From a virus (taxonomy: Duplodnaviria > Heunggongvirae > Uroviricota > Caudoviricetes), in the IMG/VR virus record IMGVR_UViG_2923302340_000009, positions 1-54,993 of that record: a stretch of 54,993 nt of DNA, one strand, 5' to 3'. Positions 5,246 through 54,993 of the stretch are shown here, one piece after another. The notes under the pieces are model-generated. The model saw only the letters and a list, made by a program, of their open reading frames with translations, did not search any database and was not told the DNA's origin. Each line of letters begins with the position of its first letter. The first letter of the stretch is position 1. The translations under genes and the position numbers were made by a program.

Positions 5246-8647
<3,402 letters not shown>

Positions 8648-45028: not shown

Positions 45029-45361
45029 TTAATGTAGTGCACTTCGTGACAACAAATTAATCACCAACACACCGGCACAAATCAACATCATGCCTATAAT
45101 GGCTGGCAGGTCCAGCCGTTGGCCGAAAAATCCCCATGACAGTAAGCTAATCAGGACAATCCCGACTCCTGACCAGATAGCATAAGCAATCCCTGTAGGA
45201 ATATAAGCCAGCGTCTGAGCTAATAACCAGAATGATGCACAGTAACAAATAATTGTACCAACAGATGGCCATAACCGTGTAAAACCTTCTGAAAACTTCA
45301 TTAAGGTTGTACCAATGACCTCTGCAAGTATTGCACCACCAAGATAAATATAAGGGTTCAT
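45029..45361 (-). CDS. emrE: small multidrug resistance efflux protein EmrE
   Basis: 110 aa from MNPYIYLGGAILAEVIGTT; near-identical to E. coli EmrE. Confidence 0.92.
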   Translation of the reverse strand: MNPYIYLGGAILAEVIGTTLMKFSEGFTRLWPSVGTIICYCASFWLLAQTLAYIPTGIAYAIWSGVGIVLISLLSWGFFGQRLDLPAIIGMMLICAGVLVINLLSRSALH

Positions 45362-45428
45362 AGCATATTCTTTCCTGTTCAAACTGGAGAGAATTGTACT
45401 ACAGTTTGAACTCAACTCACCTGTTTCA

Positions 45429-47441: not shown

Positions 47442-47981
47442 TCATATCGCCCCCAGCATGGTAGTAACCATCGCCATCAATGGACCAGCCAGATCTGGGT
47501 CCACACGAAACATCGACACAATACCTTCACTAATTTCCTTCAGTTTCTGGTGGCGTGGTGCGTTGAGAATGACAGCCTGTTTTGCCTCACTGAGTTCCTT
47601 TTCCATTTCAGCCAACCTAGCCATGAAGCTATCCTGCTCAACCAGGTAACCGCGATATTCCAGCGGTAGTACCGCCAGAATTGCCGGGGTCAGTTCACGC
47701 ACGTTATTTCGGTATTTTTCAGAATCGAATTTGTTATCGAGGAAGCGGAACAGCTTCTGGCGTGCACGGCTGACATCATCAGGGAAATCGATGGTGCCGC
47801 CGCCCTGCTCCCGATACTCATTCACAATGAGTGTGGCAACGACATCCTGATTATCTACAGCCGACCAGGCGCGGACGGCATCACGGATTTTTTCGTGGCC
47901 TGGCACCTGTTTTGTTTGAGAACGATTTATCACCGCAGTCGGGCTAAATCCGCTAGTCTGTTGGTATGTAAGTGGTTGCAT
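47442..47981 (-). CDS. YdaT-like protein (cII position)
   Basis: 179 aa; EYREQGGG...LTPAILAVLPLEYRGYL pattern resembles Rac-prophage YdaT family. Confidence 0.5.
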   Translation of the reverse strand: MQPLTYQQTSGFSPTAVINRSQTKQVPGHEKIRDAVRAWSAVDNQDVVATLIVNEYREQGGGTIDFPDDVSRARQKLFRFLDNKFDSEKYRNNVRELTPAILAVLPLEYRGYLVEQDSFMARLAEMEKELSEAKQAVILNAPRHQKLKEISEGIVSMFRVDPDLAGPLMAMVTTMLGAI

Positions 47982-48050
47982 AATTGACTCCTTTAGTTTG
48001 AATTGACTGTTAAGTTGATTGCTTATTGTTAAAGAGCGTGAAATGGAAAT

Positions 48051-48281
48051 TTAAGCTGCGTTCTTTTCGGTGTGTGGAAACAACTTCGGAAGATCCGGGC
48101 GAATCTGGTATGCCTTCACTACTCCACCAGTAGCCGTAACAATGCTGCCGACATGTTCAGGGGATACCTTTGCTTTGTTGTGAAGCCACTTATAGACGGC
48201 CTGCTGTGAAACTTCGCAAGCAGCGCCCAGTTTCTTTTGTGAACCAACGATATTGATCGCTGTTTTGATAGCTGGGTTCAT
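48051..48281 (-). CDS. Cro/YdaS-like HTH regulator
   Basis: 76-aa HTH protein divergent from repressor; SD GGAGG. Confidence 0.65.
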   Translation of the reverse strand: MNPAIKTAINIVGSQKKLGAACEVSQQAVYKWLHNKAKVSPEHVGSIVTATGGVVKAYQIRPDLPKLFPHTEKNAA

Positions 48282-48385
48282 AACAACCTCCGTGGTTAAT
48301 TTGAATCAAGATTAAAACTATGGTTGTTTTTAGTCAACAACCATTTTCGCTTGATGGAATAAAACCTTGGTTGTACATTTGGACT
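48282..48385. promoter_or_regulatory. rightward-operator-like region between cro-like and cI-like genes with AACAACCAT half-sites
   Basis: ATGGTTGTT-N7-AACAACCAT perfect inverted repeat plus AACCTTGGTTGT; divergent gene starts on both sides. Confidence 0.6.
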
Positions 48386-49075
48386 ATGAAAACAACACTC
48401 TCAGAAAGACTTAAAGAAGCCAGATTAGCGCGAGGCCTTACACAAAAGGCGCTTGGGGATTTGGTCGGGGTTAGCCAGGCTGCTATTCAGAAAATCGAAA
48501 CAGGGAAAGCTAATCAAACAACTAAAATCGTGGAGATCGCGAACGCTTTGGGTGTGCGCGCAGAATGGTTATCTTCTGGCGTTGGAAATATGTCAGACAG
48601 TACAGTGCAACCAATACAATCAACTGTCAGCCATTCCAAATACTTCAAGATTGACGTTCTTGATATAGAAGTCAGTGCTGGGCCGGGAGTCATCAACCGT
48701 GAGTTTGTAGAAGTTCTACGCTCGGTTGAGTACTCGTTTGACGATGCTCGTCACATGTTCGATGGTAGGAAGGCGGAAAATATCCGCATCATTAACGTGC
48801 GTGGTGACAGCATGTCAGGAACGATCGAACCAGGTGATCTGCTGTTCGTTGATATCACAGTTAAATCTTTCGACGGTGATGGTATCTATGCGTTTCTGTA
48901 CGACGACACAGCCCATGTAAAGCGCCTGCAAATGATGAAGGATAAGCTGCTGGTCATCTCTGATAACAAAAGCTACTCACCGTGGGACCCGATCGAGAAA
49001 GACGAGATGAACCGGGTGTTCATCTTCGGTAAGGTTATTGGGAGCATGCCGCAGACATATAGGAAGCATGGGTAG
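48386..49075 (+). CDS. CI-like repressor (HTH + LexA/S24 peptidase domain)
   Basis: HTH TQKALGDLVGVSQAAIQKIE; S24-like C-terminal domain with Ser (GDSMSG) and Lys (HVKRL); start at internal ATG 48386. Confidence 0.8.
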   Translation: MKTTLSERLKEARLARGLTQKALGDLVGVSQAAIQKIETGKANQTTKIVEIANALGVRAEWLSSGVGNMSDSTVQPIQSTVSHSKYFKIDVLDIEVSAGPGVINREFVEVLRSVEYSFDDARHMFDGRKAENIRIINVRGDSMSGTIEPGDLLFVDITVKSFDGDGIYAFLYDDTAHVKRLQMMKDKLLVISDNKSYSPWDPIEKDEMNRVFIFGKVIGSMPQTYRKHG

Positions 49076-49195
49076 TACCAATTAAAAATTATCAACTGGG
49101 CATTGTGCTCATTCAGTAAAGAACTAATTCCTATCTTTGCTCTAGGTAGTAATATTAAGCCACCGCAATAATATCTTTACCTAACGGCGTAAGAA

Positions 49196-49222
49196 TCCCG
49201 GTCACCGTGCCGGGTTTTCTTT
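49196..49222 (+). terminator. rho-independent terminator downstream of cI-like gene
   Basis: cccgg-tcaccgtg-ccggg hairpin followed by TTTTCTTTT. Confidence 0.5.
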
Positions 49223-49364
49223 TGCCCTCCCCTCATCACACACACCGTTAAAAAAACCACCATAACCTCGCTTCAGTTATCGCTATGCGATTCAAGTCAC
49301 AAAATAAATCCATCCTAAATACAACCAGTTATATCTAAAACAACCAATAAAACAACTTTTGTTG

Positions 49365-49393
49365 TTGACGATAAAACAACCATGGTTTTAAAT
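49365..49393 (+). promoter_or_regulatory. pL-like promoter with operator palindrome in spacer
   Basis: -35 TTGACG, 17-nt spacer containing aaccatggtt, -10 TTAAAT; further AACAACCA half-site upstream. Confidence 0.5.
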
Positions 49394-49586
49394 AAGTTCA
49401 TCGCAACAACACAACGATACGGCAACTACCTGATTCACCGTTGCGATGACCGCTTAGATCCGCAGTTTGAATTTCAGCAGGCTTCGGGGAGTGCGAGGGG
49501 TGAAACGGACGCGTGAACGTCGGTGTGACCAGCTGAAATTAACTCAACATTTCATACCTTAGTCGCTTCAACGAGGCGGCTTAGTT

Positions 49587-49877
49587 ATGACAACCGGCGG
49601 CCATCCACCGCCTGAATACGCGCAGAAGTCTCTATATGTTCAGCAGCCCAGCTTACGGGCAGGAGTTTTTATGGTTCATCAACATTATGGAACGCAGACC
49701 GTTAATCGAGGTGCGGTCATGCCAGGAATGCTGGTCAAACACAAAGATGGTACCTGGACTGCATCAGCTAATTTACGCGGACGGCTTTATCTGCATCGCG
49801 GCATCGAGCGCACTTATACCCGTGATTTGCTCGTGGAAGTTTTTCTCGACGGACGCGGTAACGGCCTGAATCACTAA
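49587..49877 (+). CDS. hypothetical protein occupying the N/early-left position
   Basis: 96-aa ORF, SD-like GAGGCGG; not Arg-rich N-like; lambda homology resumes just after its stop. Confidence 0.45.
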
Positions 49878-49952
49878 TCCCCTTTCCTGTTTTCCTAATC
49901 AGCCTGGCATTTCGCGGGCGATATTTTCACAGCCATTTTCAGGAGGTCAGCC

Positions 49953-50249
49953 ATGAACGCTTATTACATTCAGGATCGTCTTGAGGCTCAGAGCTGGGCG
50001 CGTCACTACCAGCAGATCGCCCGTGAAGAGAAAGAGGCAGAACTGGCAGACGACATGGAAAAAGGCCTGCCCCAGCACCTGTTTGAATCGCTATGCATCG
50101 ATCATTTGCAACGCCACGGGGCCAGCAAAAAAGCCATTACCCGTGCGTTTGATGACGATGTTGAGTTTCAGGAGCGCATGGCAGAACACATCCAGTACAT
50201 GGTTGAAACCATTGCTCACCACCAGGTTGATATTGATTCAGAGGTATAA
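49953..50249 (+). CDS. gam: Gam (RecBCD inhibitor, short form)
   Basis: Matches lambda Gam from [21 protein letters not shown]. Confidence 0.95.
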
Positions 50250-50254
50250 AACGG

Positions 50255-51040
50255 ATGAGTACAGCACTCGCAACGCTGGCAGGGAAGCTGGCTGAACGTG
50301 TCGGCATGGATTCTGTCGACCCACAGGAACTGATCACCACTCTTCGCCAGACGGCATTTAAAGGTGATGCCAGCGATGCGCAGTTCATCGCATTGTTGAT
50401 CGTCGCCAACCAGTACGGCCTTAATCCGTGGACGAAAGAAATTTACGCCTTCCCTGATAAGCAGAACGGCATCGTTCCGGTGGTGGGCGTTGATGGCTGG
50501 TCCCGCATCATCAATGAAAACCAGCAGTTTGATGGCATGGACTTTGAGCAGGACAATGAATCCTGTACATGCCGGATTTACCGCAAGGACCGTAATCATC
50601 CGATCTGCGTTACCGAATGGATGGATGAATGCCGCCGCGAACCATTCAAAACTCGCGAAGGCAGAGAAATCACGGGGCCGTGGCAGTCGCATCCCAAACG
50701 GATGTTACGGCATAAAGCCATGATTCAGTGTGCCCGTCTCGCCTTCGGATTTGCTGGTATCTATGACAAGGATGAAGCCGAGCGCATTGTCGAAAATACC
50801 GCATACACTGCAGAACGTCAGCCGGAACGCGACATCACTCCGGTTAACGATGAAACCATGCAGGAGATTAACACTCTGCTGATCGCCCTGGATAAAACAT
50901 GGGATGACGACTTATTGCCGCTCTGTTCCCAGATATTTCGCCGCGACATTCGCGCATCGTCAGAACTGACACAGGCCGAAGCAGTGAAAGCTCTTGGATT
51001 CCTGAAACAGAAAGCCACTGAGCAGAAGGTGGCAGCATGA
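50255..51040 (+). CDS. bet: Bet (Red beta single-strand annealing protein)
   Basis: 261 aa, essentially identical to lambda Bet. Confidence 0.97.
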
Positions 51041-51717
51041 CACCGGACATTATCCTGCAGCGTACCGGGATCGACGTGAGAGCTGTCGAACAGGGGGATG
51101 ATGCGTGGCACAAATTACGGCTCGGCGTCATCACCGCTTCAGAAGTTCACAACGTGATAGCAAAGCCCCGCTCAGGAAAGAAGTGGCCTGACATGAAAAT
51201 GTCCTACTTCCACACCCTGCTGGCTGAGGTTTGCACCGGTGTGACTCCGGAAGTTAATGCTAAGGCGCTGGCCTGGGGAAAACAGTACGAGAACGACGCC
51301 AGAACTCTGTTTGAATTCACTTCCGGCGTGAATGTTACTGAATCCCCGATCATCTATCGCGACGAAAGTATGCGCACCGCCTGCTCTCCCGATGGTTTAT
51401 GCAGTGACGGCAATGGCCTTGAGCTGAAATGCCCGTTTACCTCCCGGGATTTCATGAAGTTCCGGCTCGGTGGTTTCGAGGCCATAAAGTCGGCTTACAT
51501 GGCCCAGGTGCAGTACAGCATGTGGGTGACACGAAAAGATGCCTGGTACTTTGCCAACTATGACCCGCGTATGAAGCGTGAAGGACTGCATTATGTCGTG
51601 GTTGAGCGGGATGAAAAGTACATGGCGAGTTTTGACGAGATGGTGCCGGAGTTCATCGAAAAAATGGACGAGGCACTGGCTGAAATTGGTTTTGTATTTG
51701 GGGAGCAATGGCGATGA
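51037..51717 (+). CDS. exo: Exo (lambda exonuclease)
   Basis: 226 aa, essentially identical to lambda Exo. Confidence 0.97.
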
Positions 51718-51869
51718 CGCATCCTCACGATAATATCCGGGTAGGCGCGATCACTTTCGTCTACTCCATTACAAAGCGAGGCTGGGTATTTCCCGGCCTT
51801 TCTGTTATCAGAAATCCACTGAAAGCACAGCGGCTGGCTGAGAAGATAAATAATAAACAGGAGGATATA
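51714..51869 (+). CDS. small ORF downstream of exo (lambda orf60a-like N-terminus)
   Basis: 51-aa [31 protein letters not shown]...; ATG overlaps exo stop. Confidence 0.45.
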
Positions 51870-52933
51870 TGAGTCAGGTTGGTAATCATTCATTCGAATT
51901 TCCGGCATCGCAAGGTGTACAGGGTGGTACTGTTACACTCTTCCTTACCATACCAGGAAGATCGCTGGCTCGTTTCCTCGCTTCAGATAATTACGGCCAT
52001 ACACTGGAACGCTCTCAGCGAGAAATTAATCCAAATCGAGTACGAAAATTTTTAAATTATCTCACTAACGCAGACTCAAGAAATGAGCCTTTTATCATTC
52101 CCCCTCTCGTAGGTAACTGTGATTCGAATATAGAATTTGTACCGTTTGGCAACACAAATGTTGGTATAGCCAGAATTCCCCTCGACGCCGAAATAAAACT
52201 TTTTGATGGTCAACATCGTGCAGCTGGCATTGAGATATTTTGCCGAAGCTCCCCATCAACGCTCATGGTTCCCATGATGCTTACAATGAATCTGCCGCTA
52301 AAAACCCGGCAGCAGTTCTTTTCGGACATAAATAACAACGTTTCTAAGCCATCAGCGACCATCAATATGGCGTATAACGGCCGGGATGATATTGCTCAGG
52401 GAATGATATCCTTCCTGACCCAACATACTGTATTTGCCGATATAACCGATTTTGAACACAACGTAGTGCCATTAAAAAGTAATATGTGGGTGAGTTTCAA
52501 GGCACTCACTGATGCAACGTCAAAGTTCGCTAGGAACGGCAATCAACAACTTGAAATGGGATATATAGAATCTGTCTGGGAGGCATGGATTACACTAACT
52601 CAGATTGACTCAATTCGACATGGTGTACACCACGCTACGTACAAGCGCGATTATATTCAGTTCCATGGAGTAATGATTAACGCTTTCGGTTTTGCGGTTC
52701 AACAGATGATGGTTAATCATTCCATCGCAGAAATAACTTCTATGATCGAAAAACTATGTGCAACTACCAGCTCTGCAGAAAGAGAGGATTTTTTTCTGAT
52801 GGATAACTGGGCGGGGATCTGCACGAAAGCCAGCCAGGAAAAACTATCTGTTATTGCCAATGTGGCAGCGCAGAAAGCAGCAGCAAACAGACTGATACAA
52901 GCTTTTACCAAAGGAAGTCTGGAAACAACTTAA
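51869..52933 (+). CDS. DGQHR-domain protein (DndB-like), stand-alone
   Basis: Exact DGQHR motif (KLFDGQHRAAGIE); 354 aa; SD AGGAGGA; between exo and xis. Confidence 0.65.
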   Translation: MSQVGNHSFEFPASQGVQGGTVTLFLTIPGRSLARFLASDNYGHTLERSQREINPNRVRKFLNYLTNADSRNEPFIIPPLVGNCDSNIEFVPFGNTNVGIARIPLDAEIKLFDGQHRAAGIEIFCRSSPSTLMVPMMLTMNLPLKTRQQFFSDINNNVSKPSATINMAYNGRDDIAQGMISFLTQHTVFADITDFEHNVVPLKSNMWVSFKALTDATSKFARNGNQQLEMGYIESVWEAWITLTQIDSIRHGVHHATYKRDYIQFHGVMINAFGFAVQQMMVNHSIAEITSMIEKLCATTSSAEREDFFLMDNWAGICTKASQEKLSVIANVAAQKAAANRLIQAFTKGSLETT

Positions 52934-53086
52934 TGAATCAACATTGTCTCATATCAGCATGCTGTACGGCGTCTTTAAGGAACGGTGAGCATGAAAAACA
53001 AAATCATCATGGAGCTACAGGCTCCTTTTTTATTATTCGCATTCACCCTCAAGCGTATTAACCAACAATTCAGGGATTAATGAAAG

Positions 53087-53631: not shown

Positions 53632-53974
53632 GGCCTGTCAGTTTCTTAAGATATCCAGACCAACCGCCACCAACTGGATACGAACAGGCCGCCTACAGGC
53701 AACACGTAAAGATCCAACCAAGCCAAAATCTCCTTACCTCACAACACGGCAAGCCTGCATTGCGGCGCTTCAGTCTCCGCTGCATACTGTCCAGGTGAGC
53801 GCGGGTGATGGCATAACAGAGGAAAGAAAATGTCACTCTTCCGCAGAAATGAAATATGGTATGCCTCGTATTCGCTCCCGGGCGGGAAACGAATTAAGGA
53901 ATCTCTTGGCACAAAGGACAAGCGGCAAGCTCAGGAGTTGCACGACAAGCGAAAAGCAGAACTCTGGCGTGTAG
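53603..53974 (+). CDS. xis: excisionase-like HTH protein
   Basis: [34 protein letters not shown]; SD GAGGT; C-terminal part overlaps int by about 145 nt, so 3' extent uncertain. Confidence 0.55.
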
Positions 53975-54993
53975 AAAAGCTAGGGGATTTACCTGATGTC
54001 ACTTTTGAAGAGGCCTGCCTAAGATGGCTTGAGGAAAAAGCTGATAAAAAATCTCTCGATTCAGATAAAAGCCGGATTGAGTTCTGGCTTGAACATTTTG
54101 AGGGTATAAGGCTTAAAGATATCTCGGAGGCAAAGATTTACTCTGCTGTAAGCAGAATGCATAACAGAAAGACGAAAGAAATATGGAAACAGAAAGTTCA
54201 GGCCGCTATCAGGAAAGGTAAAGAACCGCCTGTTTATGAACCAAAGCCAGTATCAACTCAGACAAAGGCAAAGCATCTTGCCATGATAAAGGCCATTCTC
54301 CGTGCTGCAGAACGCGACTGGAAGTGGCTGGAAAAAGCGCCTGTCATCAAGATACCAGCGGTCAGAAACAAGCGAGTCAGATGGCTGGAAAAGGAGGAAG
54401 CAAAACGCCTTATTGATGAGTGCCCCGAACCACTGAAATCTGTCGTCAAGTTTGCGCTGGCAACTGGTCTGAGAAAGTCGAACATCATAAATCTGGAATG
54501 GCAACAAATCGACATGCAGCGACGAGTTGCCTGGGTGAATCCAGAAGAGAGCAAATCAAACCGCGCCATTGGTGTGGCGCTGAACGATACCGCCTGTAAA
54601 GTGTTGCGTGATCAAATAGGCAAGCATCACAAATGGGTGTTTGTACATACCAAGGCGGCTAAGCGAGCAGATGGAACATCAACGCCTGCGGTCAGGAAGA
54701 TGCGCATCGACAGCAAGACATCATGGCTATCAGCTTGTCGTCGTGCAGGAATTGAAGATTTCCGTTTCCATGACCTCAGACACACCTGGGCAAGCTGGCT
54801 GATTCAGTCAGGCGTCCCATTATCAGTGCTTCAGGAAATGGGCGGATGGGAGTCCATAGAAATGGTTCGTAGGTATGCTCACCTTGCGCCTAATCATTTG
54901 ACAGAGCATGCGAGGAAAATAGACGACATTTTTGGTGATAATGTCCCAAATATGTCCCACTCTGGAATTATGGAGGATATAAAGAAGGCGTAA
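53830..54993 (+). CDS. int: phage tyrosine integrase (DLP12 IntD-like)
   Basis: 387 aa; C-terminal catalytic motifs HDLRHTWAS...GGWES...MVRRYAHL; resembles E. coli DLP12 IntD; stop at window end. Confidence 0.9.

Follow-up and report, generated by a model that had tools for sequence, protein, structure and literature searches.

An early-left leader with neither N nor put in a very common lineage of lambdoid phages

How are the recombination genes of a lambdoid phage expressed from the left early promoter, pL, when no N gene can be recognised between that promoter and gam? In textbook lambdoid control the N protein, or put RNA in the case of HK022, carries early transcription past terminators. 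The question was raised by a 54,993-nucleotide (nt) stretch of Caudoviricetes DNA (IMG/VR record IMGVR_UViG_2923302340_000009, positions 1–54,993; hereafter the window), in which the 877-nt interval between a cI-like repressor gene and gam (49076–49952) had been described, in a first-pass annotation made from the letters alone, as holding only a terminator, a pL-like promoter with operator and an open reading frame (ORF) of 96 amino acids (aa). The answer that we favour, and judge to be probable if by no great measure, is that the antiterminator and the terminator are jointly absent and that kil, gam, bet and exo would be read independently of N from pL.

The early-left leader and the terminator of its relatives

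Closely similar copies of the 877-nt interval were present in isolated phages, with 99.8% identity in PhiR34_1, 98.7% in Turner and 90–97% in PhiR47_2, IdasGreatGrand, 4A7, 4C10, 1W, 3W and others. The order cI, pL, leader, kil, gam was seen at 95–99.8% identity in PhiR34_1, Turner, PhiR47_2, 4A7, 4C10, 1W and 3W. The genome of PhiR34_1, whose host is recorded as K-12 MG1655, is complete at 44.6 kb; it includes O, P and Q as well as genes for lysis, head and tail, and no N. The leader (49395–49590) was detected at 93–100% identity in 2222 of 5426 complete Escherichia coli genomes (about 40%), where it is never annotated, and copies were found in E. coli phages only. The interval forms the left edge of the immunity region, together with the early-left leader, in a lambdoid lineage that is without N and very common, and that mixes a nin region like that of DLP12, Red genes like those of lambda and Rac-like cro and cII genes of the YdaS/YdaT type.

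Positions 49550–49612 were aligned to phi80, HK639 and HK225, where the matching sequence lies just downstream of tL1-type intrinsic terminators. In these three phages (tL1A in phi80; labelled 'terminator' in HK639) a GC hairpin with a T-run abuts the sequence CATACC, and precisely this structure is absent from the window. Among 200 copies of the element, a run of at least five T residues within 22 nt of its 5′ side was seen in 75 of the 79 copies outside the lineage and in none of the 121 within it. One of the four exceptions, L104, is a compact put phage (IMG/VR UViG_2568526609_000001, positions 6093–6300) in which an HK639-type putL directly abuts the element: pL, putL and the hairpin element follow one another, and neither an ORF nor a terminator separates them. 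Its architecture is the nearest analogue of the leader in the window. A scan for intrinsic terminators found no terminator-like site on the plus strand from 49224 to 49820.

No antiterminator family was found by PHROGs, Pfam or NCBIfam profiles among the plus-strand ORFs of the pL operon, which matched Kil, Gam, a DksA/TraR-like protein, an excisionase and unknowns. When lambda N, phi80 N, P22 gp24, phi21 N and HK022 Nun were compared with the whole window by tblastn (the P22 gp24 and phi21 N query sequences having been entered by hand), there were no hits with E < 0.2 and the early region was empty. In the pL leader (49395–49670, plus strand) no boxA lay within three mismatches of GCTCTTTAACAA and CGCTCTTA was absent at up to one mismatch, and no boxA–boxB pair was apparent there on visual inspection. 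Rfam 15 gave no match at gathering score in the whole window and only chance-level matches (E 0.7–9) at 47900–50000.

N-less lambdoid phages are usually presumed to use put RNA (PMC12315714), and a put covariance model was built for this reason from eight sequences (HK022 putL and putR, HK639, CobraSix, S9-5, phiEt88, PdC23 and UPF_BP1). In HK022, put acts in cis to give terminator read-through, which is blocked by mutations in the β′ zinc-binding domain (PMC9378689). The features modelled were a two-stem RNA and the conserved core AACGGCGCG...GUCGG...GGCGGG..CAGG..GA..G.CAAU. As a positive control the model gave 33–97 bits on 18 other put-bearing loci; it found no match in the window's early region (E up to 10, filters off), scoring less than 5 bits at the leader, and none in 4A7 or PhiR47_2, and a putR equivalent was not found in the window. 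The leader is thus not a member of the HK022 put family, while lying, as put does, immediately after pL in a phage that lacks N, as in HK022, HK639 and L104.

These results sustain most of the first-pass annotation. The terminator, the promoter with operator and the single 96-aa ORF were all located; what precedes gam in the early-left region is not lambda's, and lambda homology resumes at the gam upstream region, in a blastn block that starts only at 49871. Its statement that no N is recognisable agrees with the profile and tblastn searches, the nut-like boxA/boxB hairpins that it named as a check were sought in the pL leader and not found, and the 96-aa protein, which by its own test would have refuted it by proving to be an N-like or other antiterminator, was matched by Kil profiles instead. 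Four of the five genes that it listed as missing (N, ral, cIII and ea10) are indeed absent, but kil is present, as matches to phrog_294 and PRK11354 indicate. It had overlooked the covarying leader hairpin, the absence of the relatives' terminator and a perfect boxA downstream of cro.

On the favoured reading, the repressor transcript would halt at the terminator at 49197–49224; upon derepression pL would fire at about 49400, and RNA polymerase would traverse a leader of about 270 nt into kil (49671–49877) and on into the lambda-type gam-bet-exo genes without meeting a recognisable intrinsic terminator. The unit present in relatives (nutL-N, or putL with ORFs, plus a tL1-type terminator) would have been replaced by a terminator-free segment of 150 nt and, the antiterminator and its barrier being missing together, kil and the Red genes would by construction be expressed independently of N. 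The anatomy, the identity of Kil, the lack of N, nut, put and terminator and the recurrence of the layout in isolated phages are observed; the start of the transcript, efficient read-through from pL and the part played by the conserved module described below are what we infer. The features concerned are the following, the plus strand of the window corresponding to lambda's leftward direction.

48386–49075, plus strand: cI-like repressor gene, 229 aa from ATG 48386, with Pfam HTH_3 (5e-13) and Peptidase_S24 (1e-18)
49197–49224, plus strand: intrinsic terminator, CCCGGTCACCGTGCCGGG plus TTTTCTTTTG, with a GC stem of 6 base pairs (bp; CCCGG..CCGGG) and then TTTTCTTTTG
49319–49382: oL operator repeats, core AAACAACCA / ACAACC
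49365–49394, plus strand: pL, with −35 TTGACG (49365–49370) and −10 TTAAAT (17-nt spacer) or TAAATA (18-nt spacer) at 49388–49394
49398–49449, plus strand: 5′ leader hairpin, 10-bp stem UCAUCGCAAC/GUUGCGAUGA with a 32-nt CA-rich loop
49434–49552, plus strand: leader core, 119 nt, in place of the nutL-N-tL1 or putL of relatives
49553–49589, plus strand: conserved RNA hairpin of 15 pairs, in which CAUA pairs with UAUG
49587–49877, plus strand: 96-aa ORF, a mini-ORF (MTTGGHPPP...) without stop, in frame into kil
49596–49612, plus strand: invariant hairpin GGCGG-CCAUCCA-CCGCC, inside the mini-ORF (codons GGHPPP)
49671–49877, plus strand: kil, 68 aa from ATG 49671, with Shine–Dalgarno (SD) sequence AGGAG at 49661–49665 (5-nt spacing)
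49871–51871, plus strand: block homologous to lambda, from the kil 3′ end/gam upstream region through gam and bet to exo, 97.5% to lambda 33193–31194
49953–50249, plus strand: gam (PHROG gam)

The cI-like gene, the homologue of which is labelled cI in the PhiR34_1 record, faces cro and a 'cII' gene on the minus strand. The terminator behind it is predicted to end the cI (maintenance) transcript and to shield pL from read-through. The spacer between the two (49076–49196) is a point of cargo insertion in relatives, analogous to lambda rexAB, and holds GevT/GevA in PhiR47_2 and a hypothetical protein together with an ASCH-domain protein in 4A7; the window has no cargo there. The exact operator 9-mer AAACAACCA occurs only three times in 55 kb (48321–48329 on the minus strand, 49338–49346 and 49374–49382), with one-mismatch copies at 48335 and 49319; the motif also flanks pR/pRM, and an operator is located within the pL spacer. 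Both pL and pR, which parallel each other across cI (pR being TTGACT-17-TAATCT), were read by eye from the sequence, a strict consensus promoter scan having marked neither. Transcription from pL would start at about 49400, and this is where homology among phages of different immunity begins. The 5′ leader hairpin has a minimum free energy of −13.1 kcal/mol (z-score −3.46; 1 of 200 shuffles equally stable) and is missing from a minority immunity variant, u14/u46 (5 of 84 loci), in which its 5′ arm is replaced.

The shared hairpin module and kil

The hairpin at 49553–49589 sequesters AUG 49587 together with the preceding GAG. None of 200 shuffled sequences was as stable (z-score −3.85), and across 73 distinct sequences 99% of cells were paired, seven pairs had changes on both sides, and cells with such both-side changes numbered 145 versus at most 32 in slid controls. 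The second hairpin, at 49596–49612, carries a terminator label in HK639; a T-run comes after it in that phage but not in the window. In most relatives the mini-ORF is 16–23 aa long and ends before the SD sequence of the next gene; in the lineage of the window a small deletion after GAAGTCT removed the stop, so that the mini-ORF reads in frame into kil, creating the 96-aa ORF. The 26 nt around the start of the mini-ORF (UUAUGACAACCGGCGGCCAUCCACCG), which were themselves the search pattern, are essentially invariant, the GAAGUCU block is retained even among loci that differ in its reading frame, and a third hairpin before the SD sequence of the next gene is built from alternative stems (GCC/GGC, GCGC/GCGC or GCCC/GGGC). 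Nucleotides kept across frames, together with the alternative stems, point to an RNA-level function for the whole module (49553–49670), which probably sets the level of downstream translation or the escape of the transcript from Rho; a translation- or Rho-linked checkpoint would be a reasonable guess.

The module precedes many different first genes and occurs after tL1-type terminators in both N-type and put-type phages, as well as in N-less phages. The loci compared were L005, L006, L007 and L095–L214, a pattern scan of IMG/VR with the 26-nt string having given 120 further loci. Rfam has no entry for the module, and literature searches for the conserved sequence or peptide and for the phage names were empty; a literature search on phi80 tL1 likewise gave no paper on the terminator. 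Proline-rich leader ORFs of the mgtL type, as in the Salmonella mgtA leader, control Rho-dependent attenuation, and they are taken here as a lead only. Both comprise a short ORF with consecutive proline codons in a structured leader, with the start codon in a hairpin, and a rho-dependent terminator is annotated in phi80 just downstream of the element; in contrast to mgtL, to which there is no sequence relation, the nucleotides of the module are kept across frames, as expected of an RNA-level constraint.

By sequence comparison the 96-aa ORF holds a Kil of the phi80/Rac-KilR type, a predicted FtsZ/cell-division inhibitor. Its residues 20–96 matched positions 4–80 of the 83 in phrog_294 ('Kil protein for bacterial septation inhibition', E 1.2e-38), and residues 29–96 matched positions 1–70 of the 73 in NCBIfam PRK11354 (KilR, 'FtsZ inhibitor protein'; E 4e-17, 61.9 bits, under the curated cut-off of 92 bits). 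Kil proteins of phi80, HK639, HK225, L104 and S9-5 align with it from Met29, that is Met1 of the 68-aa form, at 38–85% identity, and the record of phage 4A7 annotates the same 68-aa gene as Kil; ATG 49671 is on these alignments the real start of kil. Other records annotate a wrong frame or a 128-aa 'Kil' extension. A 77-aa ORF in an alternative frame (49636–49869), which stands as a 'hypothetical protein' in place of kil in PhiR34_1, was considered and set aside as a miscall: it has no family match, and the Kil frame has strong ones.

The 47-aa Kil of lambda gave no BLASTP alignment with the window Kil at E up to 100. Despite belonging to a different family, the window gene occupies the same slot as lambda kil, directly upstream of gam; kil adjoins gam in HK639 too, and in phi80 and HK225 it lies in the early-left operon, upstream of their recombination-region genes. 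The lambda match is a single blastn block, which sets in 6 nt short of the stop of the 96-aa ORF and 82 nt ahead of the gam ATG, so that lambda homology starts at the last two kil codons. All of kil, gam, bet and exo are intact.

Points against N-independence and rival explanations

Several observations weigh against N-independent reading of the operon. The phi80 record places a rho-dependent terminator, tL1B, some 110 nt past the shared element. The leader is partly C-rich (C/G 1.7 at 49395–49454 and 1.2–1.5 at 49515–49654), and an untranslated C-rich leader of 270 nt is a plausible Rho entry site. A hairpin after exo (51778–51800), presumably the tL3 region of lambda, persists in the pL operon, as does a good terminator upstream of xis/int (53011–53025), and without antitermination the expression of xis and int after induction would need some other explanation. 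Finally, the strong conservation of the leader core from the exact transcript start hints at an additional function.

An alternative that is unlikely, yet to which we give some weight, is that the leader core (about 49400–49552) is a new cis-acting processive antiterminator RNA, an analogue of HK022 put. A polymerase so modified on leaving pL would pass the terminators at 51778 and 53011 as well as Rho-dependent sites, and phages of this layout have been recovered free although terminators persist before xis/int. The core sits exactly at the position of putL in L104, and the leader is shared from about 49400 onward by phages with different operators, its conservation beginning at the predicted transcript start. 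The first 20 nt or so (CAUCGNAACNANACANCGA) resemble the 5′ ends of the pL transcripts of HK639, phi80 and HK225. Folding z-scores are uninformative for the core, and their lack of significance is no counter-argument, true put RNAs themselves scoring from −0.9 to +0.4.

Against an antiterminator RNA stands, besides the lack of an Rfam match, a put-model score below 5 bits where the 18 genuine put loci all reached at least 33. Among 47 distinct variants of the core only scattered changes were seen, mostly C/U, with an unstable RNAalifold model and no double or compensatory changes; the copies, at 93–100% identity and from E. coli phages only, are too alike for covariation testing. A minority variant is without the first 39 nt of the leader and shares it only from 49434. 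Likeness to put and nut leaders is weak and mostly in the first 20 nt (alignment z 1.4–3.0), and word-level likeness to put stem I or the phi80 nutL core is no greater than chance would allow (p about 0.1 by our own estimate). A fuller version, in which the core (119–150 nt) would be an unrecognised class of antiterminator RNA replacing both N/nut and put in the commonest lambdoid prophage lineage of E. coli, and the adjoining module a Rho/translation checkpoint shared by lambdoid early-left operons, appears to us a shade less probable again.

It is also improbable, we consider, that host Nus factors alone, recruited by a boxA as in rrn operons, perform early antitermination with no phage protein. 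This possibility arises from the pR side of the immunity region, where the relevant features are:

48051–48281, minus strand: cro of YdaS type (Pfam 'toxin' family YdaS of Rac prophage)
48026–48038, minus strand: rrn-type boxA without mismatch, CGCUCUUUAACAA, in the pR transcript at the nutR position
47442–47981, minus strand: 'cII' of YdaT type (Pfam 'toxin' family YdaT of Rac prophage)

The boxA is 13 nt long, lies 12 nt after the cro stop and is the only zero-mismatch match to GCTCTTTAACAA in 55 kb, where about 0.007 would be expected for an exact 12-mer by our own arithmetic. It accompanies the same cro allele at 28 related loci, but all of these copies share one cro 3′ end and so represent one allele, not independent conservation, and members of the lineage with another cro allele, an immunity type with a cro-cII spacer of 24 nt, are without it. 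No boxB-like hairpin was seen by inspection in the 45 nt from boxA to the start of the cII-like gene. Moreover, this boxA belongs to the pR transcript, whereas the pL leader has none, and rrn-type complexes act mainly against Rho rather than at intrinsic terminators. The site may be a functional Nus-only element or a relic, possibly of nutR.

Far less probable is an arginine-rich, N-like protein read from TTG 49467 or GTG 49491 (GVKRTRERRCDQ...) through the mini-ORF into Kil as a product of 128–136 aa, of which the window, with TAG at 49560, would be an amber variant. The sequence KRTRERR, like an arginine-rich motif, is encoded in the ORF at 49467–49562 in the frame of the 96-aa ORF, that frame is open at 49 of 84 loci (CAG for TAG; 136 aa), and several phage records annotate the 128-aa 'Kil' from GTG 49491. 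However, TAG interrupts the frame at 29 of the 84 loci, those of the isolated phages PhiR34_1 and Turner among them, and most of the other six are broken. The polymorphisms are spread 5:3:5 by codon position, unlike those of a coding sequence, and neither a family, similarity to N nor relatives outside the lineage were found. From 49553 on, the sequence is homologous to the non-coding leader of relatives, the same nucleotides falling in different frames, and Kil has its own strong SD sequence and a conserved Met1. An upstream frame serving as a mini-N was accordingly rejected as unlikely, the frame not being conserved open and its codon pattern being flat; it is probably fortuitous.

Scarcely credible, lastly, is a defective prophage, a decayed remnant that has shed N and its neighbours: five lambda genes are absent between pL and gam, but complete isolated phages whose structural, lysis and replication modules are all there show the identical arrangement, thousands of genomes share the junctions as clean module boundaries, and kil, gam, bet and exo have survived whole. 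The first-pass annotation had offered N-independent expression of the Red genes or a defective prophage as the two choices; the former fits what was found, and the latter is not needed, the same layout being that of isolated phages.

Neighbouring modules and known systems

The immunity region is Rac-like and the recombination genes are lambda-like. Between exo and the TraR-like, xis and int genes lies a 354-aa ORF (51869–52933; phrog_7901, with a DGQHR motif and a weak ParB-like match), which has its own strong terminator (53011–53025) and is absent from PhiR34_1. The integrase ORF (53830–54993) stops at the last base of the window, which places the attachment site and flanking host DNA outside it. 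In the pR operon an emrE (SMR efflux) gene (45029–45415, minus strand) follows ren, and, going by the annotation of PhiR34_1, the nin region resembles that of DLP12 (ybcK-ybcN, ninE, ybcO, rusA, ylcG and Q). The window has the look of an intact relative of DLP12, a cryptic prophage of K-12.

Compared with lambda, the window has the same order of cI, terminator, oL/pL and a leftward operon ending in kil-gam-bet-exo, but is without nutL, N, tL1, ral, sieB, ea10 and cIII; its kil is of another family, and its immunity genes belong to the YdaS/YdaT type known from Rac. With the putL phages HK022 and HK639 it shares the lack of N and a non-coding leader from the pL start, the first 20 nt or so being similar to those of HK639, while differing in having neither a match to the put model nor a putR equivalent. 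The phi80 early-left order is nutL - N - tL1A - shared element - tL1B - ... - kil; the same Kil family (42% identity) and the same hairpin/mini-ORF element are found in the window, where the element is not preceded by a tL1A, whereas the nutL boxA/core, N and intrinsic tL1A of phi80 are all three absent. In N-independent derivatives of lambda, nin-type deletions drop terminators and N becomes dispensable. The logic of the leader described here would be the same, in a version that is natural, widespread and on the pL side.

The lineage thus has neither N nor put, yet occurs in isolated phages, and its N-less layout is a common working design, a natural variant of the lambdoid early-left region. 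For annotation, the absence of N is no ground for labelling such prophages defective, and the small ORF upstream of gam should be called kil. The leader of a very common prophage contains two unannotated conserved RNA elements, and its early-left operon appears to be N-independent through the joint loss of terminator and antiterminator.

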